Counted from the first letter of the stretch, positions 4,230 to 56,872 are shown. The stretch is 64,000 nucleotides of DNA from Bacteroidales bacterium UBA5515 (GCA_002423895.1 DIOL01000035.1:2161-66160); one strand, 5' to 3'. Notes: generated from the sequence alone by a model not told the origin. Translations and numbers: made by a program.

Positions 4230-4521
4230 TAGTCCTGCTTTTGGATTAGATTAATAAATATTTTTGTTTAATAGATTGATTTTACTCGCTTTGCGAAAGA
4301 GTTCCATAAATGAAAGTCTTATCACTCAGGTTTCAAATACGCTGCAAAGATACAAAAGATTTCTTTAATCAATTATTTTTAAGTAGAAAAATTGTTAAAA
4401 GCTTCATTAAACTCAATCTCTTGCTTATTTCTGATAAATAATAAAGACCTTTAACCAGAAAATCAAAGATTTAAACTAACGAAATGCCGTTTAGAAAAAT
4501 TTTTGCTTGATATAAAACTGA

Positions 4522-4631
4522 TATAATGCCATTAAATGATAAGTATAATGCCATTATACTTCCCATATAATGCCATTAAACCATCAATATAATGGCATTA
4601 TACCGAGAATATAATGGCATTATACTAAAAT
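4522..4631. repeat. Phased palindrome array A: 5 units of TATAATG(C/G)CATTA(TA), period exactly 22 bp
   Basis: Units start at 4522, 4544, 4566, 4588 and 4610. The first three carry a GCC centre and the last two GGC, i.e. the opposite orientation. A degenerate AAACTTCGTTT unit follows in phase at 4633. Confidence 0.9.
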
Positions 4632-6412: not shown

Positions 6413-6631
6413 TTGATTTTATTTTAGAAGGAGAGCTTAATGTTAGTTTTTAATGTGTAAACCAAAAATAGTATTAAACCCAAAGAGTGTAAATAGTATT
6501 TAGTATTAATTTCAATTCTGCAAACAATAATAAGGGATAAAAGAAAGGTAAAATCAAGTAAATAACTACAAAAACAAAATCTTAAACTAAATAAACAGGC
6601 TTTCAAACTAATTAAACTTCATTTCAATCTC

Positions 6632-6741
6632 AAAACAATGCCATTGTTTTGTCAAAACAACCGCATTGTTTTAGGCAAACAATGGCATTGTTTTAGTAAA
6701 ACAACCGCATTGTTTTGAGTAAACAATGGCATTGTTTTTAC
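6632..6741. repeat. Phased palindrome array B: 5 units of AAACAA(TGCC/CCGC/TGGC)ATTGTTTT, period exactly 22 bp with a 44-bp higher-order repeat
   Basis: Units start at 6632, 6654, 6676, 6698 and 6720. Segment 6654-6697 is nearly identical to 6698-6741. Confidence 0.9.
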
Positions 6742-6922
6742 ATCAAGTCCTTATAAAAATATTTTAATACTTGATTTAGTGAGATTAAAGTCTTGATAAA
6801 TCAGCTCTATTTCTTGTGTAATTTGATTGTTAAAAGATATATTTGAAAATAGGATAGGAGTTAAGAAATTTTTTCATAATATTGCATTCTATTTAATGGA
6901 AGTTATTTTCTTTAATTAAAGG

Positions 6923-7591: not shown

Positions 7592-7691
7592 GTAAGTAAA
7601 ATATAATAAAGCATTGTATTTTCATAATTGATTAACTTTGCTGAGTGTAATTATAAATAAGAGGATTAAGTGTTTTCTAAAAAATAATAAT

Positions 7692-8615
7692 ATGAAACGT
7701 GTATTTAAGATAATTGTTTTTTGTGCCTTTATAAGTTGTATAGGCTTTCAGTCATTTGCAATAAAACCTGATAGTGTTTATGTGATGCGTCCAGAGAATC
7801 TTGGTTTAATTTATAGAGATTTAAATGTAACAACTTCTGACGGATTGAAGATTAAAACATGGTTTTATCCTGCTCAACCTGCTCTTTCAGAAAAAGAAAT
7901 AAATGAAGCTTGGAATAATCCTGTCAAGAAACCTTATAAAACAATTGATAAAGAACCTCGCCCAACAATAATTATTGCTAATGGTGATGCAGGAAATATG
8001 TCTTACCAGCAAGTGCATTTTGCACTAAATTTTACTTCAAAAGGATATAATGTAGTAACTTTTGATTGGCGTGGTTTTGGAGAAAGCAGTGAGTGGGAGA
8101 TAAATAATGATTATTTAGTTTATTCGGAGTTCTTGCTTGATTATGATGCAGTAATAAAAGAAGTATTAAAACAAAATGAAGAGGTAGATACTAATAGAAT
8201 TGCTGTTTTTGGATGGTCAACAGGAGCATATCTTTCTATGGCAGCATCAAGTAAGTATGATAATATTAAAGCCTTTGTAGGTATTGGCTTAATTACTTCT
8301 TTTGATGATGTGCTTCCTCTTTTAAAACAATTACAAACCCATAAAGATCGTAATTTAATAGTCCCTGATAACTATCCTAAAGAATTATTGCCAGTAAACT
8401 TAGCACCAAACTATAACAAATCAACATTTCTAATAGTTGGAGAAAAAGATAATCGTACACCCGTTTGGATGAGCAAGAAAATATATTCATTACTACCTTC
8501 AAAGAAAGAGTTATGGATAGTTGAAGGAGCAGAGCATGGAGGGCAAAATGGTCCAATAAAAGATTTCAAACTTTTCGATGAAAGATTTATAGAGTTTTTG
8601 GATAAGAACTTGTAG
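7692..8615 (+). CDS. Secreted alpha/beta hydrolase
   Basis: GWSTGA nucleophile elbow (GxSxG), a late Asp, a His in EGAEHG, and a signal peptide from the ATG at 7692. The track start at 7638 is a TTG. Confidence 0.75.
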   Translation: MKRVFKIIVFCAFISCIGFQSFAIKPDSVYVMRPENLGLIYRDLNVTTSDGLKIKTWFYPAQPALSEKEINEAWNNPVKKPYKTIDKEPRPTIIIANGDAGNMSYQQVHFALNFTSKGYNVVTFDWRGFGESSEWEINNDYLVYSEFLLDYDAVIKEVLKQNEEVDTNRIAVFGWSTGAYLSMAASSKYDNIKAFVGIGLITSFDDVLPLLKQLQTHKDRNLIVPDNYPKELLPVNLAPNYNKSTFLIVGEKDNRTPVWMSKKIYSLLPSKKELWIVEGAEHGGQNGPIKDFKLFDERFIEFLDKNL

Positions 8616-8730
8616 AGATTAATAAAATTTGAGAAAGAAGTATTTATATAAAATAATTACATTTTCAGTTGAGAAATTGTGATAAATAGTAAATAAATAT
8701 AATTGAAGACTAATAAAATTACGATATAAT

Positions 8731-11649: not shown

Positions 11650-11713
11650 AGTATAGGTTAATTTCTAAAATAAAAGTTTATTTTGATTTTTGTGTTTTAC
11701 AAACAATAAAACT

Positions 11714-20630: not shown

Positions 20631-21851
20631 ATGATCAGAAATTATAGAATAATAATATTTTCACTTCTCACAATAATTACCTTTAGTTCTTTTGCACAAG
20701 AGAAATCAGGATTTTCCTATGATATCTATGGTTTTTTCAATGCGCAGTATTATTTCAACACTCGAAAGACATATTCATCTGTTGATGGATTGTATTCCTT
20801 ATATCCTTTAGCTCCAAATTATAATTCAAAAGGAGAGGACTTGAACGGAATAAATAACCATTATTTTACAGTATCAACAACTCGAATTGGAACAAAATTT
20901 AACTTTGGAGAAATTAATGGAACAAAATTTAGAGGACTTATTGAAGCTGACTTTACTGGACAGGCAGGTGGATTAGCTAATTATTTTAGATTTAGACATG
21001 CTTATTTGCAAATAAATTGGAAAAAATCTCAAATGATAATTGGGCAATATTGGAATCCAATGACTATTCATCAAGTATCTCCTTTTAACAAAGAAATACA
21101 TAATGGAGCTCCTTTTCGTCCATTTTCACGCATTTATCAAGTAAGATATGAATACAAACCATTTGGAAAGTTTAATATCCTTTCAGCATTATCTTTTCAA
21201 AGAGATAATGCAACAATTGGAGTTGATAAAATTAAGGATTACAACCAACAAGTAAGAACATTTATTCCAATAATGAACTTGCACTTTCAATATTCTTCAG
21301 ATAATTTGTTTGCTGGAATTGGAGGAGAGTTTAAGGCTATTCAACCAAGAGAAACTTATACAATAAATAATCAAACTTTGATTATGAATGAGAAAATGTA
21401 TAATTTTTCAACTTCAGTTTATTTTAAATACCTGACAAAGAAACATTCATTCAAGTCACAAGCAATTATTGGAGATAATTTAAATGATATGTCTATAATT
21501 GGAGGTTATTATGAAAGTGCATTTGATACTATAAATAATAAGTTTTCATATAATCCAACAACAACATTTTCTTCATGGTTAGACTACTCCTACGATATGG
21601 GCAATTTTAAACCAGCAGTTTTAATTGGTTATACAAAAGACTTGGATGTTAATACAAAAGGTTATCAAAATGCTTATGGATTAGGAATGGATATTGACAA
21701 TTACTTTAGAATATCACCAAGAATTGATTATGAACTAAAAAACAATTTTTTCCTTACTTTTTGCGTTGAATATCAAAATGTAAAATTTAAAGATATATCT
21801 AAAAGAGTTGAAGCCCTTAAGTTTTCTTTAAATTGTACCTATACTTTTTAA
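20631..21851 (+). CDS. Outer-membrane beta-barrel (porin-like) protein
   Basis: Signal peptide, alternating amphipathic beta pattern, aromatic C-terminal residue (..CTYTF). Confidence 0.6.
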   Translation: MIRNYRIIIFSLLTIITFSSFAQEKSGFSYDIYGFFNAQYYFNTRKTYSSVDGLYSLYPLAPNYNSKGEDLNGINNHYFTVSTTRIGTKFNFGEINGTKFRGLIEADFTGQAGGLANYFRFRHAYLQINWKKSQMIIGQYWNPMTIHQVSPFNKEIHNGAPFRPFSRIYQVRYEYKPFGKFNILSALSFQRDNATIGVDKIKDYNQQVRTFIPIMNLHFQYSSDNLFAGIGGEFKAIQPRETYTINNQTLIMNEKMYNFSTSVYFKYLTKKHSFKSQAIIGDNLNDMSIIGGYYESAFDTINNKFSYNPTTTFSSWLDYSYDMGNFKPAVLIGYTKDLDVNTKGYQNAYGLGMDIDNYFRISPRIDYELKNNFFLTFCVEYQNVKFKDISKRVEALKFSLNCTYTF

Positions 21852-21856
21852 CAAAA

Positions 21857-22657
21857 ATGGAAGCAATAAATTTTGTTAAGTATCAAGCCTCTGGAAACGA
21901 TTTCGTTTTAATTGACAATCGTTTCAAAGAATATTCTTTCACAGAAGAACAAATTCAAAAGATTTGTCATAGACATTTTGGAATTGGTTCAGATGGTTTA
22001 ATCCTATTGGAAAACTCCAAAGAAGCAGATTTTCTAATGAAATTCTTTAACCCTGATGGGTCATCCGATATGATGTGTGGAAATGGAGGGAGAAGCATTG
22101 TTGCTTTTGCCAAAAGTCTTTCAATTATTGATAAAGAAACAAGTTTTATTGCTCCCGATGGATTGCATACCGCTCAAATCATAAGCCAAGAGGAAAACCA
22201 TTCTTTGGTTAAATTGAGTTTAAGGGATGTAAGTGAGATTTCTTTGTTTGATGATGGTCAATATCTCAATACTGGTACTTCTCATTTTGTTAAAGAGGTT
22301 GATGATGTTTCTCAAATCAACATTAAGGAAGAAGGGAGTGCAATTCGTTATGATAAGCGTTTTGAGAAATTTAAAGGGACTAATGCCAATTTTATTCAAG
22401 TTGTGAATAATGGAGAGCTAAGAATAAGAACTTACGAAAGAGGAGTAGAGGACGAAACTCTTTCGTGTGGAACAGGAATAACAGCTTCTGCCATCGCCTA
22501 TGCAGAAAAATATAAACTAAATCAATCACCAATTACCATTCAATCAAAAGGAGGGGAGTTGAAAGTATTTTTTGAAAAAACAGCTCAAAATACCTATTCT
22601 AATATATTTCTTCAAGGCTCAGTTGGAAAAGTTTTTGACGGAGTAATAAATCTATAA
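21857..22657 (+). CDS. dapF: Diaminopimelate epimerase
   Basis: FVKYQASGNDFVLIDN, catalytic Cys motifs MCGNGGR and SCGTG. The ATG at 21857 is preferred over the overlapping TTG at 21833. Confidence 0.9.
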   Translation: MEAINFVKYQASGNDFVLIDNRFKEYSFTEEQIQKICHRHFGIGSDGLILLENSKEADFLMKFFNPDGSSDMMCGNGGRSIVAFAKSLSIIDKETSFIAPDGLHTAQIISQEENHSLVKLSLRDVSEISLFDDGQYLNTGTSHFVKEVDDVSQINIKEEGSAIRYDKRFEKFKGTNANFIQVVNNGELRIRTYERGVEDETLSCGTGITASAIAYAEKYKLNQSPITIQSKGGELKVFFEKTAQNTYSNIFLQGSVGKVFDGVINL

Positions 22658-25042: not shown

Positions 25043-25137
25043 CAAATATAAACCATTCATTAGGTTTATTTAGGACTATTTATCCTAAAGTCAATTTCTG
25101 GAAAACAAACTCCAATCCCTAAAAATATATCAAAAAA

Positions 25138-25220
25138 AAGATGCACATCTTTTATAGTGAAAGATGTGCATCTTTTGGTATGAAAGATGTGCATCTTTGG
25201 GGTAAAAAGTCTTCGTTTAA
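25138..25220. repeat. Phased palindrome array C: 3 units of AAGATG(CA/TG)CATCTT, period 23 bp, plus a terminal AAGTCTTCGTTT unit
   Basis: Dyad centres lie at about 25144.5, 25167.5 and 25190.5. Unit 1 is inverted relative to units 2 and 3. Confidence 0.85.
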
Positions 25221-25387: not shown

Positions 25388-25472
25388 TTAACACTATTTA
25401 AAAATATTTCCCTACCTTTGAACATTAATAATAAATATAAGTTATTAATGAATAAGTATAGAATTGAAAATC
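25388..25472 (+). repeat. Promoter/leader module P1 (direct repeat of P2)
   Basis: About 85 bp that aligns to 30060-30146. Shared sequence runs ACTATTT..AAAATATTT..CT..TTTGA...AATAATAAATATAAGTTATTAATGAATAAG..GATTG.AAATC. It includes a TAccTTTG -7 box at 25413-25420. Confidence 0.8.
25413..25420 (+). promoter_or_regulatory. -7 box TAccTTTG of the island cassette operon (inside P1)
   Basis: TAnnTTTG consensus, 138 nt upstream of the ATG at 25558. Confidence 0.5.
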
Positions 25473-25485
25473 TTAATAATAATAT

Positions 25486-25539
25486 AGTGCGTGATTACTT
25501 ATCGACTTTGTCGCTTTGCAAAGCAAAGAAATCCCAAAC
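25486..25539 (+). repeat. Inverted repeat R, left copy
   Basis: AGTGCGTGATTACTTATCGACTTTGTCGCTTTGCAAAGCAAAGAAATCCCAAAC matches the reverse complement of 29785-29840 at roughly 85 percent by eye. The core TTTGCAMAGCAAGAAATC also occurs at 26390-26407. Confidence 0.8.
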
Positions 25540-25557
25540 TAAGGAAAATTACCTATC

Positions 25558-26283
25558 ATGAGAAAATATTTAATTTTATTATTGTCATGCTTTTTAATTA
25601 CAGCATGCATTAAATCAAAAGTAGAATTAGAAGATTTAAATACTATTTGTTTTAAAATATCTGAAAGAGCATGTGATAATGCATATAGATATAAAAAATA
25701 TCAAGACAAAGAAGCTCTTGCATTATCTTTTAAACAATGTGATTCTATCATTTATGGCGGATGTGATGTTAATGCAATAGGATCAGCAATACATATAAAG
25801 TTTAATCTATATTTTTGGACTAAACAATACAAACAAGCATTAGATGAAATAGAAAAATTAAGGACCAGAGATGATATTTTTTGGGATGCTAATTTCCCCA
25901 GCTCAACTTATTATAAATTATTAATACAAACATTCTGGGCTAATGATAGAGGAGAAATAGAAGAACGCAACCATTATATAAAACAAAATATTGCTTTTAT
26001 GGATGCTTGCTTTAATGCTTATAATGAGGTTAAATACGCAGATATAAAAAAAAATCTAAAAGAAGTAGATTTAGCAGACGCAGAAATTCATCATGTTAAA
26101 AAAGACTATATGAGTTTAGTTACATATTATTCAATAAAATCATTGCTATATAAAAAAGAAGATCTTTTGGAAGAAATAAAAAATATAAAAGTAGAAAAAC
26201 CTTTAGAGGAATTTTATTCTCTTGAAGATTATATAAAGAAACTAGACACAAATTTGTATTGGAAAGAGGAAAATTTATTTTAA
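25558..26283 (+). CDS. Helical lipoprotein, unknown function (island cassette 1)
   Basis: Lipobox LITAC. The ORF is followed by the conserved inter-cassette repeat X. Confidence 0.6.
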   Translation: MRKYLILLLSCFLITACIKSKVELEDLNTICFKISERACDNAYRYKKYQDKEALALSFKQCDSIIYGGCDVNAIGSAIHIKFNLYFWTKQYKQALDEIEKLRTRDDIFWDANFPSSTYYKLLIQTFWANDRGEIEERNHYIKQNIAFMDACFNAYNEVKYADIKKNLKEVDLADAEIHHVKKDYMSLVTYYSIKSLLYKKEDLLEEIKNIKVEKPLEEFYSLEDYIKKLDTNLYWKEENLF

Positions 26284-26296
26284 GTAGGGTAGTTGG

Positions 26297-26380
26297 TAAT
26301 GTATCAGATTGGGAGCCTTATTTAGTGAAGAGTTAAAAACTAAAAGTTAAAAGTGATAGGAAAACAATGGATTACTAATC
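26297..26380 (+). repeat. Inter-cassette repeat X, copy 1
   Basis: TAATGTATCAGATTGGGAGCCTTATTTAGTGAAGAGTTAAAAACTAAAAGT...GGATTACTAATC, starting 14 nt after the stop of cassette 1. Confidence 0.8.
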
Positions 26381-26488
26381 GGTTTACCGTTTGCACAGCA
26401 AGAAATCATAATAATAAAGAAGTACTGGATTATAAATCGCGCACGACAAAAGTATCAACGTTTTTGCAACTGTCTTGAATAACAGCCT

Positions 26489-27016
26489 ATGAGAACAATA
26501 TTTTTTACATTATTAGTTTTAAGCTTAAATGTTTTCGGTCAATCTGATAAAAAAGATACATTAATAAATTATTGGTTACCTGATTTTGATACATATTCAT
26601 TTGATACCATTATAAATCAGACAAATTATCGAATGAAAACGTATTGTTTAAATGATAGTGCAGTTTATAATGAAACCTTTACTGTAGAGGGAAGTAAATA
26701 TAATAACCTAATTGAATATAGTGTAGCACATAATTTTGCGACTGATTTTACGATTAAAACAGCTAATAATGAGATTAAGTTACATTTAATAAAGGAAAAT
26801 TTTAAGGATAGCTTATCATCTGATTTCTTTAAGATTTGTCACATGTGGAAAAATGAGTTTTCACATGTAGAGAATGGACAGTTAATTTTTCGTGCAACAT
26901 TTGCGAAACCAGATACTGATTATCAATTTGCAATTTTATATTTAATAACAGACAAAGGTGATATTAGAATATTAAAAGTAGAAGATGAATCATTCTATGG
27001 ATTGGGAAATGAATAA
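26489..27016 (+). CDS. Secreted small protein, unknown function (island cassette 2)
   Basis: Signal peptide MRTIFFTLLVLSLNVFGQ. Flanked by Y-type repeats. Confidence 0.55.
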   Translation: MRTIFFTLLVLSLNVFGQSDKKDTLINYWLPDFDTYSFDTIINQTNYRMKTYCLNDSAVYNETFTVEGSKYNNLIEYSVAHNFATDFTIKTANNEIKLHLIKENFKDSLSSDFFKICHMWKNEFSHVENGQLIFRATFAKPDTDYQFAILYLITDKGDIRILKVEDESFYGLGNE

Positions 27017-27081
27017 ATTTCCCGCACTACAGAAGTACTGGATTCTAAATCCAGCACTACGGAACAATAAAATATAAGATT

Positions 27082-27627
27082 ATGAAAAAAATAGCAATAA
27101 TAATATTTTCAATCATTGGTATTTCAGGTTGTTATATGATTTACCCACTTGAGAACGAATCTCGAAATGTTTTTGATTTAGATGATTATACTGAGACAAA
27201 ATACGAAGTATCGTTGCAATTTGGTATAAATAGTTGGATGACTCCTGACGAGAATTATGGTAAATACTCTGATACACTAGATAGATTAAAATATATATTT
27301 AGTATACCTTGTCCAGAACTTCCTTTAGTAAAGCTAAATTCATTTACTTTTACAAGGCAAAAAGACAAGGATACAATCCCAACCATATTTTATGTATGGG
27401 GAGGAAAGGGGGAGACATTATTGATTGATAGCTTGCCTGTTAGTTTTGATAATAAAATAAAAGAAAAGATTCAATCTTTTTCAATTATTGCTGAGAGTAA
27501 TGCTCCATTTCGTGATATAGATAGTGTTTATATAAATTACAATATACAAGTAGGGAAGGATACAATTATAAAAAGTATTTTTTATAAACGAACTCTACGA
27601 AATGGATCAAAGTGGTTAATGTGGTAA
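27082..27627 (+). CDS. Lipoprotein, unknown function (island cassette 3)
   Basis: Lipobox GISGC. Followed by the second copy of repeat X. Confidence 0.55.
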   Translation: MKKIAIIIFSIIGISGCYMIYPLENESRNVFDLDDYTETKYEVSLQFGINSWMTPDENYGKYSDTLDRLKYIFSIPCPELPLVKLNSFTFTRQKDKDTIPTIFYVWGGKGETLLIDSLPVSFDNKIKEKIQSFSIIAESNAPFRDIDSVYINYNIQVGKDTIIKSIFYKRTLRNGSKWLMW

Positions 27628-27632
27628 TTGAT

Positions 27633-27717
27633 TAATGCATCAGAAAAGGAGCCTTATTTAGTGAAGAGTTAAAAACTAAAAGTGAAAAGTGATGGAAAAA
27701 CAACGGATTACAAATCC
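27633..27717 (+). repeat. Inter-cassette repeat X, copy 2
   Basis: TAATGCATCAGAAAAGGAGCCTTATTTAGTGAAGAGTTAAAAACTAAAAGT...GGATTACAAATCC, starting 6 nt after the stop of cassette 3. Confidence 0.8.
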
Positions 27718-27737
27718 TGCAGATGAAAATAGTACTG

Positions 27738-29225
27738 CTATAATAGTTTTTTAATCGCATTTATTGTTTCTATTGTTTTTAGTTTAAGTTCTGGATCTAC
27801 ATTAGCTTGTTCAATCATCATTAGACAACTATCAATCTTCTCTATTGTATCAGCATTTGATAATTTAATCTTCTCGAGTTCAGTACTATTAACAACACTA
27901 ATAGAATTAGTATTCAAATTAATCAACTCTGGAAGTATTTTTAACAATTTCATAGCTTTATTCATTTCAATCAAGGGATTAGTCTTAACTAAAGCATTGA
28001 ATAATGTGAGAGTATTATCTCTATCTTTAAACCTATAATGAACAGAACACTCTCTTAACTGCATATTGTTAATATCATCACTTACTGCTAATTCTTTTAA
28101 CTCTCTTTCAATTTTAACTAATAAATCTGTCAAGTTTTTATCAGTTGAAGATATTAAAATTGAATATATATTTTGTTTCCAGAATGATTTAGATTGTTCA
28201 ATATCTGTATATCCATAAATGTGTTTAAATCCCTCATACACTATGATATTAATACGCCTTAGATTTAATTGTTTTTCAAAGTAATACTCAGAACTTAAAT
28301 ATGCTCTTATTGCACTTGCTAAATCCAAATATATGAAATGGATATGAACACCTAAATAAATTGATTTAACAATAGTTTGAAGTCTTCCCTCAAAAGTTTC
28401 TCCTAACTTAAATTTATCTTGCACAATTTTAGTCTTTTTACAATTTGAGACAATGCTGTCTAAATTATTACTATATAAAGTTATTTGCGCACCAAGTTCA
28501 TTGAATAATTTATTGTTTCCATCAGGGAAATAATTAATCTTTTCCCTTACATCAATATTATAATTATCAGTTGAGTAAATAAGAGGTATTTGAAACTTTA
28601 AGATATACTTATGCAAGAAAGGCAATATGTCTTTTATTATCTTTAAAAAGGCATTTATTCTATTAGTTTCAGTATCTTCTCCTATTTGTATTAAAAAATC
28701 GTAAACTTTTTGAGGATATAAATCATAGTGAATGGAAAGATTTCGAGTATCTTTATCTGTTGATAGTGCATAACTATTCTCAAATTCTTTTGCTTGTTGT
28801 TCTATTTTATTAATATCCGTTAATAATTCTGAATCGTTTATTTCTTTAGCTAATATTTTAAATTTAGCCCATATTGCATTATCCTTATCTTTACCAAAAC
28901 CAAATAAATATTTATAGCCTTCTAACGTTATTACATTTATATATTTTAGATTAAAACGTTTTTCAGGAACTAACATTGTTCTAAAATTTGCCCTTAAAAA
29001 TGTACTTAAATCAAGATCCATAAGCAAAGAAAATACATAAAGTCTTATAAATATTTTCCACAATTTAAATTCTTTTATACATTTATACTCTTTTTCATCT
29101 ATATCTTCTAAGCTTTCTAATGAACTAACACAACTACACAATATAGGTACATATAATGAGAAGTTATTCCCCATATTTTCATATAATCTATGAATTGTTT
29201 CTTCGGATGCTGGTTTCTGTGTCAT
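27738..29225 (-). CDS. Internally duplicated protein with two Rx4H motifs (candidate double-HEPN RNase)
   Basis: Two homologous halves, aa 68-180 and aa 298-410. Each has NL+xINxIxxEGxK...W and ends in an Rx4H-Y motif: TRNLSIHY (R161-H166, nt 28728-28745) and LRECSVHY (R391-H396, nt 28038-28055). Confidence 0.55.
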   Translation of the reverse strand: MTQKPASEETIHRLYENMGNNFSLYVPILCSCVSSLESLEDIDEKEYKCIKEFKLWKIFIRLYVFSLLMDLDLSTFLRANFRTMLVPEKRFNLKYINVITLEGYKYLFGFGKDKDNAIWAKFKILAKEINDSELLTDINKIEQQAKEFENSYALSTDKDTRNLSIHYDLYPQKVYDFLIQIGEDTETNRINAFLKIIKDILPFLHKYILKFQIPLIYSTDNYNIDVREKINYFPDGNNKLFNELGAQITLYSNNLDSIVSNCKKTKIVQDKFKLGETFEGRLQTIVKSIYLGVHIHFIYLDLASAIRAYLSSEYYFEKQLNLRRINIIVYEGFKHIYGYTDIEQSKSFWKQNIYSILISSTDKNLTDLLVKIERELKELAVSDDINNMQLRECSVHYRFKDRDNTLTLFNALVKTNPLIEMNKAMKLLKILPELINLNTNSISVVNSTELEKIKLSNADTIEKIDSCLMMIEQANVDPELKLKTIETINAIKKLL

Positions 29226-29413
29226 TGTAATTATATTGCTTTAATAATTAATTCTATTGAGATAATATTCTATCCTATTTATTGTTTAACCTATTTTCTA
29301 TTCGGTTTTTTATAAGACTTTATAAGGGAGAAAATTGATATGCTTTTTCAATTTTATAGTAAGTGTGGTTTATAAAAGATAATATTAAATGAGAAAAATT
29401 AATTATCTTTTTG

Positions 29414-29421
29414 CAAAGATA
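29414..29421 (-). promoter_or_regulatory. -7 box (TATCTTTG on the minus strand) upstream of the double-Rx4H gene
   Basis: CAAAGATA on the plus strand. It implies a leader of about 180 nt. Confidence 0.4.
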
Positions 29422-29529
29422 AAAATAATAATGATATAATGATCACAAATCTAACATCGTATTCTGCCTCTTTCTATTTTTAACCATCTAAAACAAGCTT
29501 AAAATATGATACCTTATGATATTAAATTT

Positions 29530-29760
29530 AGACTTCTTGTTTTTGAAACGAGACTTCTTCTTTTTACTTTTAGACTTCTTGTTTGTAGTCAATAAGTCTG
29601 ACTTTTGTTATCAAAAAGTCTGACTTATTGGGTTGAAAAGTCTGACTTTTTATATTGAAAAGACTGACTTTTTAGGTAAGAAAGACTGACTTTTTGGGTA
29701 TAATAACTTCTTCTAAAAGTATAATAACTTCTTCTAAATGTAAAATTAGGAAGTTATTGT
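29530..29760. repeat. Phased array D: about 10 units in four sub-families, period 21-22 bp
   Basis: AGACTTCTTGTTT at 29530, 29551 and 29572. AAGTCTGACTT at 29594, 29616 and 29638. AAGACTGACTT at 29660 and 29682. ATAATAACTTCTTCTAAA at 29700 and 29721, with an inverted partner GGAAGTTATT at 29749. Confidence 0.85.
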
Positions 29761-29784
29761 TTGAAATAAACTAATCGTTTTTTT

Positions 29785-29840
29785 GTCGTGTGAGATTTCT
29801 TGCTGTGCAAAGCAATAAAGTCGATAATTAATCATGCACT
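29785..29840 (-). repeat. Inverted repeat R, right copy
   Basis: The reverse complement reads AGTGCATGATTAATTATCGACTTTATTGCTTTGCACAGCAAGAAATCTCACACGAC. Confidence 0.8.
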
Positions 29841-29858
29841 TCTTAATAAAAGCAATAA

Positions 29859-29952
29859 AAAGTTAACCAAGTTAATCAAGTTAATCAAAAATGAAAAGTA
29901 TTTCAGAATAGAAAATACAATACTTTTTAAAACAAGTTAACTTGGTTAACTT
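29859..29952. repeat. Nested palindrome between R(right) and P2
   Basis: Perfect 16-bp arms: AAGTTAACCAAGTTAA at 29860-29875 and TTAACTTGGTTAACTT at 29937-29952. They enclose a 9-bp inner inverted repeat, AAAAGTATT at 29894 and AATACTTTT at 29919. AAGTTAA is also repeated three times with a 9-bp period. Confidence 0.8.
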
Positions 29953-30059
29953 CATTAACTATTTTAAACAAGATTTAAAATGCAGTAATGTTTCAATCTA
30001 ATTTTCCCCCTGCAATTATCTTTTCTTCAATACCTATATAGCTAATATTTTATTGATTA

Positions 30060-30146
30060 ATTAATACTATTTTGAAAATATTTACTTATCTTTGACGAGC
30101 AATAATAAATATAAAGTTATTAATGAATAAGCATTGGATTGCAAAT
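30060..30146 (+). repeat. Promoter/leader module P2 (direct repeat of P1), upstream of the MFS-M20 operon
   Basis: See P1. The -7 box TAtcTTTG lies at 30086-30093. Confidence 0.8.
30086..30093 (+). promoter_or_regulatory. -7 box TAtcTTTG of the MFS-M20 operon (inside P2)
   Basis: TAnnTTTG consensus. Confidence 0.5.
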
Positions 30147-30251
30147 CACGTACAACGTAAAAGCAATGAAATTATTCACGACGTAAATCTAAATTTATTA
30201 AAATAACGATATAGAAAGATACAATAAATAAACAATTAAAAACTAATAATT

Positions 30252-31700
30252 ATGACAAACACAGTTCAGTACAAAGGGAATGACAAACTATTGTTTGGCA
30301 TTATTCTGGGAGTGTTAGCTTTTTGGCTATTTGCTCAAACCACATTAAATATCAATGTGGATATGGCGAAAGATTTAGGTATGGATACTTCGATGATGAA
30401 TATTGCCGTATCTATTACATCGCTGTTTTCTGGAATTTTTATTGTAGTATTTGGTGGGTTGGCTGATAAAATTGGTCGACTTAAAATGATTCGACTTGGT
30501 TTTTATTTCAGCATCATAGGTTCGCTATTGGTAGGGTTAACGCCTGTTGGTGGAGCATCAAGTCCAGTTTTGATTTTGGGAAGAATTTTTCAAGGACTTT
30601 CAGGTGCAGCCATTATGCCGTCAAGTTTAGCACTTGTTAAAGCATACTGGGAAGGAAAAGAACGCCAACGTGCCATTAGTCTTTGGTCAATGGGTTCATG
30701 GGGAGGTTCTGGTTTTGCAGCATTGTTTGGAGGTTTAATGGTTGGAATTGGTTGGAGATATATCTTTTTTACTGCAGTAATTATTTCAGTAATTGGACTA
30801 CTTTTGATTAAAGGGACACCTGAAAGTAAAGCAGAACCAACTGGAAATAAAAAAAGGGATTTTGCAGGTATTATTATTTTTATGTTAGCTATGATTGCAT
30901 TACAAGTTATAGTAACTAAAGGTTCTCAAATTGGATTCGCAAGTCCACTTGGTATTGTTCTAATTGCAGCAACAATTATTTTTGCATTTTTATTTTATAA
31001 AATTGAAAAAGGTAAAGACGGTGCATTTATCGACTTTAAACTGTTTAAAAATATGACTTTTACTGGTGCAACTATATCAAATTTTATGCTGAACGGAACT
31101 GCAGGAATATTGATTGTTTCGCTTGCTTTGTTGCAAATTGGTGGTAATCTTTCAGCACAAGAAGCAGGAATACTAACACTGGGCTATGCTATTTCAATTG
31201 TGGCATTTATTCGTGTAGGTGAAAAGCTGTTGCAACGTTTTGGTTCACGCAAACCAATGATTTGGGGCTCACTAATTGTCAGTGTGGCTATTATTCTGCT
31301 TATGTTCACCAATGTAATGACAGACACTTACAAAATTTTGGCTATGGTGGCTTATACGCTTTTTGGTATTGGCTTGGCTTTCTATGCCACTCCTTCTACT
31401 GATGCAGCACTTTCCAACTTGCCAGCATCACAAGCAGGTGCAGGTGCAGGTATTTATAAAATGGCTTCATCGCTTGGAGCAGCTTTTGGAGTAGCTATCC
31501 CTGCAGGTATATTTACTTCATTACGTGTTGGCGAACATATAACATGGCTTGAAGGTGTTATCACTTTTGTGGGAAGACAAGATAATCTGTCTGTACGTGA
31601 AGGAGCAACCATTGCTTTGGGTGTAAATCTGCTAATGGTTATATTTGCAATTATCATCATTATGATTACTATCCCAAAAACATCGGGAAAAGGTAAATAA
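30252..31700 (+). CDS. MFS transporter, 14-TMS DHA2 (EmrB/QacA-like) type
   Basis: About 14 hydrophobic segments and the GGLADKIGR motif between TM2 and TM3. Confidence 0.85.
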   Translation: MTNTVQYKGNDKLLFGIILGVLAFWLFAQTTLNINVDMAKDLGMDTSMMNIAVSITSLFSGIFIVVFGGLADKIGRLKMIRLGFYFSIIGSLLVGLTPVGGASSPVLILGRIFQGLSGAAIMPSSLALVKAYWEGKERQRAISLWSMGSWGGSGFAALFGGLMVGIGWRYIFFTAVIISVIGLLLIKGTPESKAEPTGNKKRDFAGIIIFMLAMIALQVIVTKGSQIGFASPLGIVLIAATIIFAFLFYKIEKGKDGAFIDFKLFKNMTFTGATISNFMLNGTAGILIVSLALLQIGGNLSAQEAGILTLGYAISIVAFIRVGEKLLQRFGSRKPMIWGSLIVSVAIILLMFTNVMTDTYKILAMVAYTLFGIGLAFYATPSTDAALSNLPASQAGAGAGIYKMASSLGAAFGVAIPAGIFTSLRVGEHITWLEGVITFVGRQDNLSVREGATIALGVNLLMVIFAIIIIMITIPKTSGKGK

Positions 31701-31736
31701 TAAATCACAATTCATTAATTAAAAAGTCGAGAAATT

Positions 31737-32900
31737 ATGAACGATAAATTATTATCAGAAGTTTCTAAACTTCAACCAGAGATGAAAGAATGGATGGATT
31801 TTATGCACCAAAATCCAGAGTTGAATATGGATACCCAAAATACAGCCAAATTTATTGCCGAAAAACTTAAATTGTGGGGTTATGATGTTGTTGAAGGTGT
31901 AGGAGGATCTGGAATTGTGGCATCATTAACCGTTGGGAAAGGAACAAAATCCATAGGACTACGAGCAGACTTTGATGCTTTGCCTATATTTGAAGACAAT
32001 GATTTACCTTATAAGAGCAAGGTAGAAGGTTGGTCGCATCTTTGCGGCCATGATGCACACGCAACAATGCTACTTGGCGCAGCTAAATACATGGCAGATA
32101 ACAAAAACTTTGATGGAACTATACGTTTAATTTTCCAACCAGGAGAAGAAACAATGGAAGGAGCTCCTGCAATGGTTAAAGATGGTCTTTTTGAACGTTT
32201 CCCAATGGATGCAGTTTATGGAATGCATAATATGCCAGGACTGCCTTTAGGGAAATTCTTTTTCCGAGAAGGAGAAACAATGGCGGCAGTTGATAACTGG
32301 GAGATAGAACTCACAGGAAAAGGCAGCCACGGTTCTATGCCTGAATTAAGTATAGACCCTCTGGTTTGTGGAGCGTCGTTGGTAATGGCACTTCAAACTA
32401 TTGTGAGTAGAAATGTATCACCATGGAAAAACTCAGTGGTAAACGTTGGCGCATTCCAATCTGGAATTGCAGGAAACGCTGTACCACAAAAGGCAATATT
32501 AGGATTAAGTATAAGAAATATGGAACCAGAGCTTCGCATAATGGTACTTGATAAAATCCGCATAATAACAAAAGCACAAGCCGAAGCTTTTAATTGTGGT
32601 TATGAAATTCGAGAAGGAGTTGCAGGTGCTGTATTGGTAAATACACCTGAAAACACTCAATGGGCATACAAAGTAGCACAAGATACCTTTGGCGAAGATA
32701 ATGCTGAGTACGGCATGCATCCATATATGGGCAGCGAAGATTTTGCTTTTATGCTTCAAAAGAAAGCAGGAACCTACTGCATGATTGGCAACGGTGATAC
32801 TTTTATGGTACACCATCCAAAATATGTTTTCAATCAAGATTTGCTGAGCCGTGGAGCAACCTATTGGGTAGCCCTTATAGAAAACTACTTAAAAAATTAA
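31737..32900 (+). CDS. M20D-family amidohydrolase (N-acyl-amino-acid / hippurate hydrolase-like)
   Basis: RADFDALP, HLCGHDAH, FQPGEE and SEDFAF motifs. Confidence 0.85.
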   Translation: MNDKLLSEVSKLQPEMKEWMDFMHQNPELNMDTQNTAKFIAEKLKLWGYDVVEGVGGSGIVASLTVGKGTKSIGLRADFDALPIFEDNDLPYKSKVEGWSHLCGHDAHATMLLGAAKYMADNKNFDGTIRLIFQPGEETMEGAPAMVKDGLFERFPMDAVYGMHNMPGLPLGKFFFREGETMAAVDNWEIELTGKGSHGSMPELSIDPLVCGASLVMALQTIVSRNVSPWKNSVVNVGAFQSGIAGNAVPQKAILGLSIRNMEPELRIMVLDKIRIITKAQAEAFNCGYEIREGVAGAVLVNTPENTQWAYKVAQDTFGEDNAEYGMHPYMGSEDFAFMLQKKAGTYCMIGNGDTFMVHHPKYVFNQDLLSRGATYWVALIENYLKN

Positions 32901-32952
32901 ATTAATATTGAATAGGTGTTGGATTATTTATCCTAATTATAGAAACATACTA

Positions 32953-33384
32953 ATGAAATATTTATATGTAATAATATTCTTTTTCCCATTTTTATGCAAC
33001 GCGCAAGATAAAGATTCAGTTACTCTAATTTTAAAGAACAATCAAAAAATAGATTATATACTTAATCCCTTTGTAAATACAATAGGATATGATAATGCTA
33101 AAACTACAATAAATGGAGATACGCTGATATTCAAAACATCATTCTTACTTGACGATACTATACTTTTTGATAATGGAACATTGGGATATAATTTTAGAAA
33201 AAATGTTCAGCCTAAAGAACGTGTGGGAAAAACTATATATATAAATCCATTACCATTTATTAGTAAAATTATTAAAGTTGAAATTAGGGATAATGATAAG
33301 GAGTATATTTACTATTTTAGGCATAAGAGAAAAAAAGTGTACACTTTCTATAAATTAGAAATAAGTAATAGTATTTCAGAATAG
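32953..33384 (+). CDS. Small secreted hypothetical protein
   Basis: The signal peptide MKYLYVIIFFFPFLCNAQ starts at the ATG at 32953. The track start is a TTG at 32908. Confidence 0.5.
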   Translation: MKYLYVIIFFFPFLCNAQDKDSVTLILKNNQKIDYILNPFVNTIGYDNAKTTINGDTLIFKTSFLLDDTILFDNGTLGYNFRKNVQPKERVGKTIYINPLPFISKIIKVEIRDNDKEYIYYFRHKRKKVYTFYKLEISNSISE

Positions 33385-33445
33385 ATTTTCGTTGTGTGGG
33401 ATTATGTATTTCAATATGAGATAAGAAAATGATAAAATATTTCTT

Positions 33446-36395: not shown

Positions 36396-37586
36396 ATGTA
36401 CGAAAAGTTTCAAAATTTCCTACAAACAGAAATAGCAGGGATTAAAGACGCTGGTCTTTACAAAAATGAAAGAGTTATTATTACTCCTCAATCAGCTGCA
36501 ATTAAAACTGCAGAAGCTGGCAATGTATTAAATTTCTGTGCTAACAATTATTTAGGATTAGCAGATAGTAAAGTATTAATTGAAGCAGCAAAGAAAGCAT
36601 TGGACGAAAGAGGTTATGGTATGAGTTCTGTTCGTTTTATTTGTGGAACACAAGACTTGCACAAAGAATTAGAAAAGAAAATATCTGATTTCTTTGGAAC
36701 AGAAGATACTATTCTTTATGCTGCATGTTTTGATGCTAATGGTGGAGTTTTTGAACCTTTATTAAATGAAGAAGATGCAATTATATCAGATTCATTAAAC
36801 CATGCTTCAATTATTGATGGTGTTCGTTTATGTAAAGCTCAACGTTTCCGTTATGCTAATGCAGATATGGCAGACCTTGAAAAACAACTTCAAGATGCTC
36901 AAAAATGTCGTTTCAGATTAGTTGTAACTGATGGTGTGTTCTCAATGGACGGTAATGTTGCACCTTTAGATAAGATTTATGCTCTTGCTCAAAAATATGA
37001 TGCAATGATAATGGTTGATGAATCACATTCAGCAGGTGTTTGTGGTCATACAGGAAGAGGAACTACTGAACAATATAATTTAAGAGGTAAAGTAGAAATA
37101 TTAACAGGAACACTAGGAAAAGCATTTGGTGGTGCAGTTGGTGGATTTACTACAGGTAAGAGAGAAATAATAGAAATGTTACGTCAACGTTCTCGTCCAT
37201 ATTTATTCTCAAACTCAATTCCTCCAATGATTGCAGCAGCAGGTATTGCTATGTTTGATCTTATTGACAAAACTAATACTCTTCAAGATAAACTACATTC
37301 AAATACATCTTATTTTGTAGAAAAGATGAAAGCAGCTGGATTTGATATTAAACCAACTCAATCTGCTATTTGTGCAGTTATGCTTTATGATGCAAAACTT
37401 TCACAAGACTTTGCTGCAGAACTACAAAAAGAAGGAATATTTGTAACAGGATTCTATTATCCAGTTGTTCCAAAAGGACAAGCAAGAATTCGTGTACAAG
37501 TTTCTGCTGCTCACGAAATAGAACATTTAGATAAATGTATAGCAGCATTCACGAAAATTGGAAAGAAATTAGGTATATTGAAATAA
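36396..37586 (+). CDS. kbl: 2-amino-3-ketobutyrate CoA ligase (glycine C-acetyltransferase)
   Basis: Fold-type I PLP enzyme with FCANNYLGL, DESHSAG and TLGKA (PLP lysine). Followed by tdh. Confidence 0.9.
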   Translation: MYEKFQNFLQTEIAGIKDAGLYKNERVIITPQSAAIKTAEAGNVLNFCANNYLGLADSKVLIEAAKKALDERGYGMSSVRFICGTQDLHKELEKKISDFFGTEDTILYAACFDANGGVFEPLLNEEDAIISDSLNHASIIDGVRLCKAQRFRYANADMADLEKQLQDAQKCRFRLVVTDGVFSMDGNVAPLDKIYALAQKYDAMIMVDESHSAGVCGHTGRGTTEQYNLRGKVEILTGTLGKAFGGAVGGFTTGKREIIEMLRQRSRPYLFSNSIPPMIAAAGIAMFDLIDKTNTLQDKLHSNTSYFVEKMKAAGFDIKPTQSAICAVMLYDAKLSQDFAAELQKEGIFVTGFYYPVVPKGQARIRVQVSAAHEIEHLDKCIAAFTKIGKKLGILK

Positions 37587-37605: not shown

Positions 37606-38559
37606 ATGAAAAAAATATTAGTATTAGGCTCAGGTGGACAAATAGGTTCAGAGCTTACGATGCGTTTAAGAAGCGTTTATGGTGGAGCAAATGTTGTTGC
37701 AGCAGATATTAAATTACCATTGATTGATGATATTATGCAATCAGGTCCAGTTGAACAATGTGATGCAACAAATGCAGCTCAAATAGCAGAAATAGTAAAG
37801 AAACATAATATAGATGCAATATATAACCTTGTAGCTATTTTGTCAGCAACAGCAGAAAAGAATCCAATGTTAGGCTGGAATATTGGTATGGGAGCTTTAT
37901 TAAACTGTTTGGAAGTTGCAAGAGAAAATAACTGTGCAATATTTACACCAAGTTCAATTGGAGCTTTTGGAGCATCCACACCACTTGACGGAACTCCACA
38001 AGATACAATTCAAAGACCAAACACAATTTATGGAGTAACAAAGGTTGCAGGTGAATTATTAGGAGATTATTATTTTACCCGTTTTGGAGTTGATGCACGT
38101 TCAGTACGTTTCCCAGGACTTATCTCAAATGTAACCCTTCCTGGCGGAGGAACAACAGACTATGCAGTTGAAATATACTATGCAGCAGTTAAAGGAGAAA
38201 AGTTCTCTTGTCCACTAAAGAAAGGTACATTATTAGATATGATGTATATGCCAGATGCACTTGATGCAGCCATAAATATTATGGAAGCAGACCCATCAAA
38301 ACTAATACATAGAAACTCTTTCAATGTAACAGCAATGCACTTTGACCCAGAAGAAATCTATGCTGAAATAAAAAAGCATAAACCTGATTTTGTTATGGAA
38401 TATCAATTAGATGACATGCGTCAAAAGATAGCTGATTCATGGCCAAATTGGATGGATGACTCATGTGCAAGAGAAGAATGGGGTTTCAAACCTAAATTCA
38501 ATCTTCAAAACATGACAGTAGATATGTTAGATATCTTAAGCAAGAAATTTGGAAAATAA
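37606..38559 (+). CDS. tdh: L-threonine 3-dehydrogenase, short-chain (NAD-dependent epimerase-like) type
   Basis: GSGGQIGSEL Rossmann motif, YGVTK catalytic motif, and operon pairing with kbl. Confidence 0.8.
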   Translation: MKKILVLGSGGQIGSELTMRLRSVYGGANVVAADIKLPLIDDIMQSGPVEQCDATNAAQIAEIVKKHNIDAIYNLVAILSATAEKNPMLGWNIGMGALLNCLEVARENNCAIFTPSSIGAFGASTPLDGTPQDTIQRPNTIYGVTKVAGELLGDYYFTRFGVDARSVRFPGLISNVTLPGGGTTDYAVEIYYAAVKGEKFSCPLKKGTLLDMMYMPDALDAAINIMEADPSKLIHRNSFNVTAMHFDPEEIYAEIKKHKPDFVMEYQLDDMRQKIADSWPNWMDDSCAREEWGFKPKFNLQNMTVDMLDILSKKFGK

Positions 38560-45347: not shown

Positions 45348-45427
45348 TTCAGGTAAATCATTTATGGTTAATTCTTTTCTTAATCCCTTTATTTATTTGG
45401 AATAATACCTAATCTTTTTCAAATTAG

Positions 45428-45648
45428 ATCAAGATATTTCGTCCTGCAACTTGATTATTTTGTCGTCAGACTTGATTATTTTGTCCTCAGAAGGCTTCCT
45501 TATGCTCTATAAAGCCGCTTTTTAACCAGAAAAAGTGGCTTTTTTGGGTGAAAAAAGCGGCTTTGGAGACCTCCAACTCTTGATTAAAATCCTAAAAGAT
45601 CAAGTCTAAATTCTAAATAATCAAGTTCCAGAACAAAATATCTTGATA
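45428..45648. repeat. Phased array E: about 220-bp imperfect palindrome built from about 10 units of 21-22 bp (MITE-like)
   Basis: The left arm ATCAAGATATTTCGTCC plus 2x CTTGATTATTTTGTC is mirrored on the right by AAATAATCAAG and GAACAAAATATCTTGAT. The centre holds three AAAGC(C/G)GCTTT / AAAAGTGGCTTTT dyads at 45516, 45537 and 45559. The symmetry axis lies at about 45537. Confidence 0.85.
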
Positions 45649-45676
45649 AAAAGTATGTTTGTGTTGTTGTCTCTTT

Positions 45677-52927: not shown

Positions 52928-53071
52928 AAAGATAGGCTTATAGCATCAAAAAGATAAGATCTTTTGACAAAATAACGGCGTCTTTGACTATTAAAGATCT
53001 CGTTATTTGATTAAAAGATGTCGTTATTTATCCTCAAGATGTTTTTATTTGTGGTAAAGATATAGTAATTT
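52928..53071. repeat. Phased array F: about 7 units related to AAAGATNNCGTTATTT, period 21-22 bp
   Basis: Units start at 52928, 52950, 52970 (inverted: AAATAACGGCGTCTTT), 52993, 53014, 53035 and 53056. Confidence 0.75.
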
Positions 53072-53735
53072 GCACAAATAGAATTGAAATTAACTCCATT
53101 TCTAAAAAAGATTTATTATTAATATTTAATTTCTAAAATCAATAAAGAAGAACAATCTGCTTTTTCTTAAAAAATCTTATTTTAATACTATTTGTGATTG
53201 AAAAGATTCACAAAATGGAAAATTAATTTAATATATTATTAGAGGTAAAAAAACAAGAATATTTCCAATTAAAATTTAAAAATATTTCCAAAAAATTTGT
53301 TTTATAAAAATAAAGATATACATTTGCAACTTGAACTTGAATTTTAATAATAATGATAAGATTATCTAATGTATTATTTTTTAACCCAGCTTATAATAAA
53401 AGATTATTAGCTGTATATTCAAGTTTAATTATTTTAATTTTGACATATCCTATTGTTAATAAATACCTTTATATTAAAATTAATTTCTATTTAAGTATGT
53501 ATGGTATTTTCTATTTGGGGAAGAACAACTTCGTAAAATAAGGAACTTTGGTTGCTTAACTACTCCCAATCTCTTGCCAAAGTTCCATAAATAATAAGCC
53601 CAAGAAGCAAAAGAGAAGCTCAATTTATAATACAGAAATAAAGATATTCACTTTCTACAATTAACTTAACCTTTTCAAAGAATATCTTTAGTTATAAATC
53701 CCCTAAGAGTATTTATTAATTAAAAATTTATAGAG

Positions 53736-56580: not shown

Positions 56581-56683
56581 TATGGTACGACCATAATGCA
56601 ATTATGGTCGTACCATAACTTAGTTATCATGCCACCATAAACTCATTATGGTACGACCATAACTAAATTATCATGACACCATA
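56581..56683. repeat. Phased palindrome array G: 5 units of TATGGTACGACCATA / TATCATGCCACCATA, period exactly 22 bp with a 44-bp higher-order repeat
   Basis: Dyad centres lie at 56588, 56610, 56632, 56654 and 56676. The ACG/CGT centre flips between units. Confidence 0.9.
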
Positions 56684-56872
56684 CAGAATTTATTCCTTGT
56701 TTAAATAAATTTTTACTTGATTTCAGTAAATTTATTCATGATATAAATAAATTCTTATCTAAGATAAATTTACTTTTTATTGGATTTAAATAGGCGTAAT
56801 TAGTCTCTCAAATGCTTATTAAAGCAAATGTTTTTTATTTCTATAAGTAGAAGGAGAAATAGGGGGATATTA

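Follow-up and report, generated by a model that had tools for sequence, protein, structure and literature searches.

The 64,000-nt stretch of DNA analysed here (the window) comes from Bacteroidales bacterium UBA5515 (GCA_002423895.1 DIOL01000035.1:2161-66160). It is chromosomal DNA of an uncultured member of the Bacteroidales, has a GC content of ~30%, and carries RecG, Lon, DnaX, RpoD and TrkAH; the organism occurs in metagenomes from fermentation and digesters. The subject of this analysis is array D, a tract of short tandem units that lies within a 1026-bp divergent region between a minus-strand gene for a 495-aa protein and a plus-strand gene for an MFS transporter. Array D belongs to a class of phased intergenic arrays with a period of 21-23 bp that is restricted to this lineage, and it is not tied to the neighbouring 495-aa gene. 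Our best reading, held tentatively, is that they are arrays of sites for sequence-specific DNA-binding proteins, operator- or iteron-like in layout and mostly, by prediction, intrinsically curved. The features are collected in Table 1.

All ten units listed in the initial annotation of the window are present where they had been placed (29530-29742), and they are followed by an inverted partial copy that was missing from that list. The units had been assigned to four repeat sub-families, which on inspection reduce to three blocks: both AAG(T/A)CTGACTT types are one base apart, and an ACTT core is shared by all. In block 1, with starts at 29530, 29551 and 29572 and steps of 21, 21 and 22, the core is invariant and the linker variable. 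Block 2 consists of AAGTCTGACTT at 29594, 29616 and 29638 and of AAGACTGACTT at 29660 and 29682, each with an 11-nt linker; its motif does not occur elsewhere in the window. The two units of block 3 start at 29700 and 29721, and the inverted copy forms a 9-bp perfect inverted repeat with 29723-29731, which is present as a hairpin in the minus-strand fold. Because all three blocks share (G/A)ACTT(C/T)TT, they look like diverged relatives or members of one half-site family.

Table 1. Array D, its surroundings and the sister arrays in the window. Curvature is the percentile of predicted curvature among all 105-bp windows in the 64 kb.
Feature	Position	Strand	Description	Curvature percentile
Array D, block 1	29530..29593		three direct units, 9-bp core AGACTTCTT + 12-13-nt variable linker	about 3
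Array D, block 2	29594..29699		five 22-bp units, palindromic core, A and T run flanks, variable linkers	about 3
Array D, block 3	29700..29741		two 21-bp units ATAATAACTTCTTCTAAA(A/T)GT	10.3
Inverted partial copy of block-3 unit	29748..29759		AGGAAGTTATTG	
Supposed left-flank motif	29477..29493	+	TTTTTAACCATCTAAAA; probably no shared element	
495-aa protein gene	27738..29225	-	two invariant Rx4HY motifs (R160/H165, R390/H395); neighbour, no demonstrated partner	
-7 box of 495-aa gene	29414..29421	-	TATCTTTG, match to TAnnTTTG	
-7 box of MFS transporter and M20 peptidase genes	30087..30094	+	TATCTTTG, match to TAnnTTTG	
Leader- or promoter-like dispersed block copy	29794..29840	-	…TTTGCACAGCAAGAAATC; points towards array D	
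Inverted repeat R	29857..29964		three 9-bp AAGTTAAYC repeats per arm; 52-nt spacer	
Sister array A	4521..4625		five 22-bp units, core TATAATGSCATTATA	70
Sister array B	6630..6738		five 22-bp units, AAACAATGSCATTGTTT / AAACAACCGCATTGTTT alternating; AATGSCATT as in A	0.3
Sister array C	25137..25209		three 23-bp units, palindrome AAAGATG-NN-CATCTTT	2.1
Sister array E	45435..45626		21-bp direct units, three AAAAGCSGCTTTT palindromes, then inverted 21-bp units	0.1
Sister array F	52945..53075		21-bp units AAAGAT.T.GTTATTT, one inverted and one palindromic unit	0.2
Sister array G	56581..56770		five 22-bp units, core TATGGTACGACCATA, then ~four 21-bp units; convergent intergenic region	92
Lon-IscS intergenic replacement	45348-45676		corresponds to L050 7931-8503	

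The periodicity of array D is far above chance. At lags 21 and 22, base identity over 29530-29742 is 0.49 and 0.53, respectively, compared with a highest value of 0.44 at any lag in 500 shuffles. Within blocks it rises to 67% in block 1 (lag 21), 79% in block 2 (lag 22) and 95% in block 3 (lag 21), and the 22-bp and 21-bp arrays were recovered by Tandem Repeats Finder (TRF) and by a repeat finder. The 21-22 bp register described in the initial annotation is real as a periodicity, but its phase is only approximate across blocks: successive steps are 21, 21, 22, 22, 22, 22, 22, 18 and 21 bp, and at the two block junctions the ACTT-to-ACTT distances come to 27 and 17 bp. At lag 22 the linker of the final block-1 unit resembles that of the opening unit of block 2 (52% identity). 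The left-flank motif that array D had been said to share with arrays A and E did not hold up. Its segment TTTAACCA occurs three times on the plus strand compared with 2.6 expected, which is consistent with chance; in array E it is a linker within the array, and no copy lies near B or C or beside the arrays of relatives.

At least six further intergenic arrays with a period of 21-23 bp lie in the window, each with its own core, at a density of about one array per 9 kb. The core is often an 11-18 bp palindrome with A and T runs on its flanks, and a short, variable linker comes after it. Exact 8-mer self-matches in the 9.6 kb of intergenic DNA number 29, 64 and 16 at lags 21, 22 and 23, compared with about 1-2 at other lags, and coding DNA has no peak at lags 21-23. 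Arrays are also present in relatives at ~93%, 90%, 82% and 76-78% nucleotide identity, and 27 of the 49 TRF arrays in loci of the lineage have a period of 21-23 bp or double that. The density of matches at lags 21-23 is 1.8 per kb in the window and 1.47 in relatives, compared with 0.22-0.29 in other Bacteroidota (1.57 Mb); the class of phased arrays is restricted to this lineage. A limited literature search returned no description, for Bacteroidales, of a genome-wide class of arrays with a 21-23-bp period and a separate core at each locus.

Composite arrays in which several blocks adjoin one another, such as array D, are the rule in this class (E, F and G in the window, and the loci L042, L049, L050 and L045 outside it). 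Palindromic blocks tend to a period of 22-23 bp and direct-repeat blocks to one of 21 bp. For most arrays the distance to a downstream TAnnTTTG box, the -7 promoter consensus of Bacteroidetes, is 100-350 bp, and arrays of the same kind as D adjoin housekeeping genes in the window. The promoter box that the initial annotation placed at 29414 is present as a minus-strand TATCTTTG (29421-29414) and fits this consensus. From the positions of the -7 boxes on either side, array D lies ~110-340 bp upstream of the promoter of the 495-aa gene and ~330 bp upstream of that of the MFS and M20 genes. A locus from a more distant member of the Bacteroidota (L045, 39.5% GC) contains a 17-unit array with a 21-bp period (6793-7149), composed of two in-phase core families, TACAGTAG.TCAAA and GCAGTAAGCCAAAG. 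It sits in a 1.8-kb gene-free stretch together with a GC-rich, structured-looking segment at ~7390-7600.

Cores are reused between arrays to a limited extent. All eight copies of AATGSCATT in the 64 kb are found in arrays A and B, which bracket an Rce1-like gene and a gene for a 124-aa protein; this sharing suggests one factor and possibly a DNA loop. The arms AAAGAT…ATCTTT occur in arrays C and F, and a relative of them with two mismatches forms a three-unit array in L049. In one genome, palindrome arrays of the CTACG type occur at two loci, upstream of a homologue of the 495-aa protein and of an McrB-like gene. Two stretches of one closed genome, L042 9467-9530 and L049 21716-21777, hold 23-bp-period arrays of related 18-bp palindromes, CTACGATG..CATCGTAG and CTACGGTG..CACCGTAG, which lie upstream of two defence-type genes and show a symmetric change in both arms. 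The other cores are locus-specific throughout the window and about 95 kb of relatives. REP and BIME elements are likewise short intergenic palindromes in tandem clusters with orientation flips. However, REPs are one family in hundreds of copies, whereas here each array has its own sequence and a fixed period, and cores are confined to their own arrays except for the one shared by A and B.

To what extent these units are constrained can be judged from arrays B and C in L052, a relative whose coding DNA is ~90.5% identical to that of the window. Array B has kept all five units without an indel, with changes at 0 of 85 core positions and 3 of 20 linker positions. In array C, again without an indel, none of 42 positions in the palindrome arms has changed, compared with three of six in the central dinucleotides; in one unit the centre has gone from TG to CA, an exact flip. 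Such centre-only variation is what a symmetric dimer site would tolerate. With both arrays pooled, 0 of 127 core and arm positions have changed, compared with 6 of 40 linker and centre positions (Fisher p = 1.4e-4), and at 9.3% divergence zero changes in 127 positions would arise by chance with a probability of 4e-6. Judged by this comparison, the cores of sister arrays B and C are under strong short-term purifying selection. A similar division is seen between the units of block 2 of array D, which deviate at 2 of 55 core positions compared with 16 of 55 linker positions (p = 5e-4).

Comparisons with other relatives show how arrays change. In L050, which is ~93% identical to the window, array F has retained its proximal units, gained one whole 21-bp unit and lost its distal end. 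At array E of the same relative the coding DNA on either side shows 100% identity, yet the Lon-IscS intergenic region cannot be aligned (Table 1), and the palindrome array is inverted and expanded: five AAAATCSGATTTT units stand in place of the three AAAAGCSGCTTTT units and adjoin the same 13-bp anchor, inverted, and every unit carries a symmetric G:C to T:A double change. The copy number of array E is one, three or five units. At the position of array G, L049 (~78% identity) has a different palindrome array with a period of 21/42 bp. On the basis of these comparisons, core and spacing are both constrained in the short term, and in the long term a different core can take over at an unchanged period. 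The initial annotation had proposed that spacing rather than any single motif is the selected property. What supports this is that the period is the one property common to arrays with unrelated cores, that arrays of the same period with a changed core are found at the G position in L049 and at E in L050, and that B and C have no indels. The claim was overstated nevertheless, given the constraint on cores in B, C and D, the ACTT shared by the blocks of D and the loose phase at its junctions. Arbitrary spacing at homologous loci, which would have made the register a coincidence, was not seen in the sister arrays. Array D itself, as part of a strain-specific island, lies outside this comparison.

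Several of these changes could be produced by a lineage-specific mutational process that generates neutral or selfish minisatellites with no function, for example by hairpin slippage or by template switching between mutually complementary palindromic units. Whole-unit changes in copy number (one unit gained in array F of L050; one, three or five in array E), flips of palindrome centres, symmetric double changes typical of template-switch correction, higher-order repeats of 42-44 bp and the location of arrays near island breakpoints are in line with such a process. We nonetheless regard it as distinctly unlikely. Linkers are saturated with differences while cores are identical, and conversion tracts that homogenised the cores would homogenise linkers of 4-11 nt too. 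The unchanged cores of B and C contrast with the ~9% divergence of neighbouring coding DNA, and both arrays have kept unit number and spacing at 90% identity. In addition, 15 metagenome contigs with the same genes as the D locus have an intergenic region that is 99.9-100% identical, and array D is the same in 13 of these 15 independent assemblies and one base different in the other two. Arrays E and F do vary, but uneven divergence along the unit and the near-invariance of D are not what is expected of a neutral variable-number tandem repeat.

Curvature was predicted using a wedge model after Bolshoy et al. 1991, checked only on A5N5, A4T4 and T4A4 controls (Table 1; a low percentile means strong curvature). 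By this measure no 105-bp windows in the 64 kb are more curved than E, F and B, and C and blocks 1-2 of D are in the lowest 2-3%, whereas A and G are predicted not to be curved. The arrays could thus be selected or tolerated as curved or easily wrapped DNA, with phased A/T runs serving as sequence-independent upstream promoter elements or as landing pads for nucleoid proteins and with spacing as the selected property. This would agree with a period that is the only feature common to arrays with unrelated cores and that outlasts core replacement, as well as with the A3-4…T3-4 form of many units. It is an unlikely account, though one to be taken seriously: the whole core is selected, including GC-rich centres irrelevant to A-tract bending (0 of 85 positions changed in array B), and arrays A and G are at the 70th and 92nd percentiles. 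The curvature may also be a by-product, because any repeat with a period of ~21 bp comes out curved in a model whose wedge parameters were checked on three controls.

Both strands of array D fold better than their shuffles (z about -4.5 and -4.9), as is expected of tandem palindromes, which fold well automatically. A function at the RNA level, with transcribed hairpin units stabilizing the flanking mRNAs or being processed into small RNAs, would account for this folding. It would also fit the pairing of adjacent units across 17 nt with linker bases included, the compensatory look of the symmetric arm changes and the promoter-like block on the minus strand that is directed into D. We consider such a function improbable. 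Blocks 1 and 3 of D and many other arrays are direct repeats with nothing to pair with, the hairpin of a single unit is very weak (4-6 pairs, mostly A-U, and a loop of 1-4 nt), and a strict period of two turns is a property of duplex DNA rather than RNA. The only matches to Rfam, in a gathering scan of the window and an E-value scan of the intergenic region, were chance ones of the microRNA type, and a tRNA search gave none. No terminator was predicted in D, which argues both against an RNA element and against D being a terminator itself; ordinary terminator hairpins occur separately. A decayed gene beneath the array was also considered and rejected, as tblastn with the island proteins gave only the short dispersed leader block.

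The 495-aa protein encoded next to array D is a member of a family of 79 proteins in Bacteroidota, all unnamed, with an internal duplication. Its structural model is confident and all-alpha (pLDDT 90), and neither Pfam, NCBIfam and PADLOC nor the PDB, searched by structure and by sequence, yielded a significant match. Homologues occur in unrelated contexts, often in defence islands near genes for Eco57I-like, AbiEii, KAP NTPase or TIR proteins. The protein is a candidate for a new tandem-HEPN defence RNase. In type III toxin-antitoxin and AbiF systems, the antitoxin or AbiF RNA is a repeat array located ahead of the gene for an RNase (PMC12373285). Array D might by analogy encode a repeat RNA that neutralizes or guides the double-Rx4H (HEPN-like) protein, as in ToxI-ToxN or with the abiF motifs upstream of AbiF, and the initial annotation had implied a tie between the array and this gene. 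The array does stand upstream of a gene whose product, a putative HEPN-type RNase, has two invariant Rx4H motifs, and arrays are also found upstream of a homologue in L042 whose protein is 82% identical.

This tie fails when the eight homologue contexts examined are compared. Six of them have no upstream tandem array, two of these being within operons, and the arrays in L042 are unrelated to D in sequence despite the similarity of the proteins. Arrays of identical style stand at unrelated loci beside housekeeping genes. A -7 box separates D from the gene, with no terminator predicted between them, and the units measure 21-22 nt compared with 33-50 nt in the known systems. Neither co-conservation with the toxin gene nor, by prediction, co-transcription with a terminator was found, and the Rfam scan gave no match to abiF (RF03085) at E values up to 10. 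We therefore rejected the array as a partner of the 495-aa gene and judge a role of the type III or AbiF kind to be very improbable. A CRISPR array was likewise rejected: the period is 21-22 bp with linkers of 4-12 nt, compared with repeats of 23-50 nt and spacers of similar length, and no cas genes were found. In annotation, the double-Rx4H gene should not be given array D as a partner of the CRISPR or toxin-antitoxin type.

The D locus is an accessory, strain-specific island of 8 kb (~25.5-33.4 kb; ~25500-33440). In L052, which is ~90% identical, it is replaced with 3.8 kb of unrelated genes, and loci retrieved from reference genomes on the basis of the MFS protein show no synteny and no arrays. 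A location of this kind, together with 22-bp tandem repeats, AT-rich DNA and inverted repeat R with its 9-mers, all within 500 bp, would be in line with D serving an integrated plasmid- or phage-like element as its origin of replication or its partition site. The iterons of plasmids such as R6K, pSC101, F and RK2 have a period of ~22 bp, with a core of 17-19 bp or shorter and few free linker bases. Array D and its kin resemble them in the tandem period of ~22 bp, the conserved core and free linker, the placement of sites on one helix face and the frequent curvature of the arrays. They differ in that there is no initiator gene or replicon context; the setting is chromosomal, and there are many arrays per chromosome with their own cores, many of them palindromes instead of direct repeats.

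An iteron or centromere in the strict sense is very unlikely. No gene for a Rep, Par, integrase or relaxase protein was found in the island or in the whole 64 kb. The Pfam scans covered the open reading frames (ORFs) of at least 100 aa in the window, with five others (17577-19643, 20631-21851, 21833-22657, 36396-37586 and 37606-38559) judged by precomputed Pfam labels or none; none of the five is a Rep, Par or integrase gene. Searches with megablast and blastn gave no similarity to plasmid or phage records, the exact two-unit pattern is absent from viral contigs, and at least six equivalent arrays stand beside chromosomal housekeeping genes.

We tentatively favour, with a little less than even confidence, the reading that D and its kin are phased arrays of putative sites for sequence-specific, probably dimeric, DNA-binding proteins. 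The reading draws on the combination of constrained cores with free linkers, conserved arms with free centres, the lack of indels, the two-turn period and the partial reuse of cores. Array D would then be a composite with about 10-11 sites for protein binding, placed in a 1-kb divergent control region that separates the 495-aa gene from the MFS-M20 genes. It belongs to a lineage-wide class with its own core at each locus. Every unit combines a core that is short and constrained with a linker that is free to vary. The putative half-site (G/A)ACTT would be single in blocks 1 and 3 and present as an inverted pair, AAGTC-T-GACTT, in block 2. As 21-22 bp corresponds to two helical turns, successive sites would fall on one face of the helix; bound proteins could therefore oligomerize cooperatively, and phased A/T runs would contribute intrinsic curvature. 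The output may be transcriptional or architectural. The arrays evolve by gain and loss of whole units, by flips of palindrome centres and by occasional wholesale replacement.

Known operators offer two partial precedents for this binding-site reading. ARG boxes are 18-bp palindromes placed 3 bp apart, giving a 21-bp period, and the lambda OR and OL regions have 17-bp operators with a period of 23-24 bp. The arrays similarly contain palindromes of 13-18 bp every 21-23 bp with conserved arms and free centres; this layout, with palindromes at integral helical turns as for ArgR or CI, is seen in block 2 of D and in A, B and C, and an array of three units, as in C, recalls a tripartite operator. 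Unlike these systems, the arrays include runs of up to 5-10 units, abutting blocks of different cores and locations hundreds of bp from promoters or between convergent genes; there is no adjacent repressor or other regulator gene, nor a candidate protein for the cognate repressor. The known LytTR-type sites are pairs of 9-bp direct repeats 12 bp apart. This spacing occurs three times in block 1 of D, with AGACTTCTT followed by 12 nt of AT-rich spacer in a period of 21 bp (12-13 bp being the spacing of the LytTR type), and direct repeats in the lineage are mostly of 21 bp. However, the arrays form runs of 3-17 units instead of pairs, their consensus is unrelated, and no LytTR gene was seen in the 64-kb window.

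A number of observations weigh against binding by dedicated proteins. No DNA-binding protein was identified, and no transcription factor gene adjoins any array; no small regulator genes were found beside the arrays, where the small ORFs are those for ribosomal protein L31 and for an 84-aa protein. Locus-specific cores with limited reuse imply many specificities for a genome of ~2.7 Mb. Cores turn over faster than is usual for transcription factor motifs, as at the G position at ~78% identity and at array E, which was re-made at ~93%. The symmetric changes in both arms (AAAAGCCGCTTTT compared with AAAATCCGATTTT, and CTACGATG…CATCGTAG compared with CTACGGTG…CACCGTAG) fit base-pairing or template-switching better than recognition by a protein. 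Array G lies between convergent genes, with no -7 box found there. Finally, D has no orthologue in any relative fetched, and the evidence for selection rests on the sister arrays.

The analysis also recorded features around array D and elsewhere in the window. The 84-aa ORF (3975-4229, minus strand) lies just upstream of a radical-SAM/BATS gene (2548-3954), with array A upstream of the pair; we take its product to resemble the small TM1266-type regulators found beside hydrogenase maturases. The dispersed block on the minus strand at 29794-29840, of the form …TTTGCA(A/C)AGCAA(A)GAAATC, is directed into array D with no ORF behind it; further copies occur on the plus strand at 25486-25530 and 26390-26407. 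Inverted repeat R has its own palindrome, AAAAGTATT…AATACTTTT, in the spacer and looks like a separate multi-site element for protein binding. A leader element, AAG(T/C)A..GGATT(N2-3)AAATC followed by GCAC/GTAC…ACG, is located downstream of the -7 boxes of island genes (25428-25475, 26413-26440, 27030-27060 and 30103-30160 in the window; 12940-13010 in L052). Two of the copies have AATAATAAATATAA(A)GTTATTAATGAATAAG in front of them, and the element may be a regulatory RNA of the 5' untranslated region or a short leader peptide (MNK…). A second accessory island at ~6800-11713, absent or replaced in L052, carries a SIR2-NB-ARC protein that matches ThsA/Dsr1-type SIR2 models in PADLOC. Array B is within 60 bp of a left island breakpoint and array C ~100-300 bp from one.

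The interest of array D lies mainly in the lineage-wide phenomenon and less in D alone. Tandem arrays of binding sites, as a kind, are known; the lineage-wide class with locus-specific cores is, within the limited literature search, apparently new. A further proposal, possible but doubtful at present, is that two-turn-phased arrays occur throughout this low-GC lineage, perhaps a few hundred per 2.7-Mb genome, as a bacterial counterpart of homotypic binding-site clusters or enhancers, or else as a new structure-reading system. The palindromic or direct cores, specific to each locus, may then be under selection while arrays are swapped like cassettes between strains; alternatively, phased hairpin-capable units could be recognized rather than sequence. 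If either version is true, array D is among the largest members of the class. The questions raised are what would read so many cores, whether phasing would lead to cooperative filaments or DNA wrapping, and whether array swaps would rewire expression between strains. If the arrays are bound by proteins, the regulation or architecture of this small genome would include a layer of unusual regularity and abundance, made up of many same-face multi-site arrays that are conserved in the short term and replaceable in the long term.

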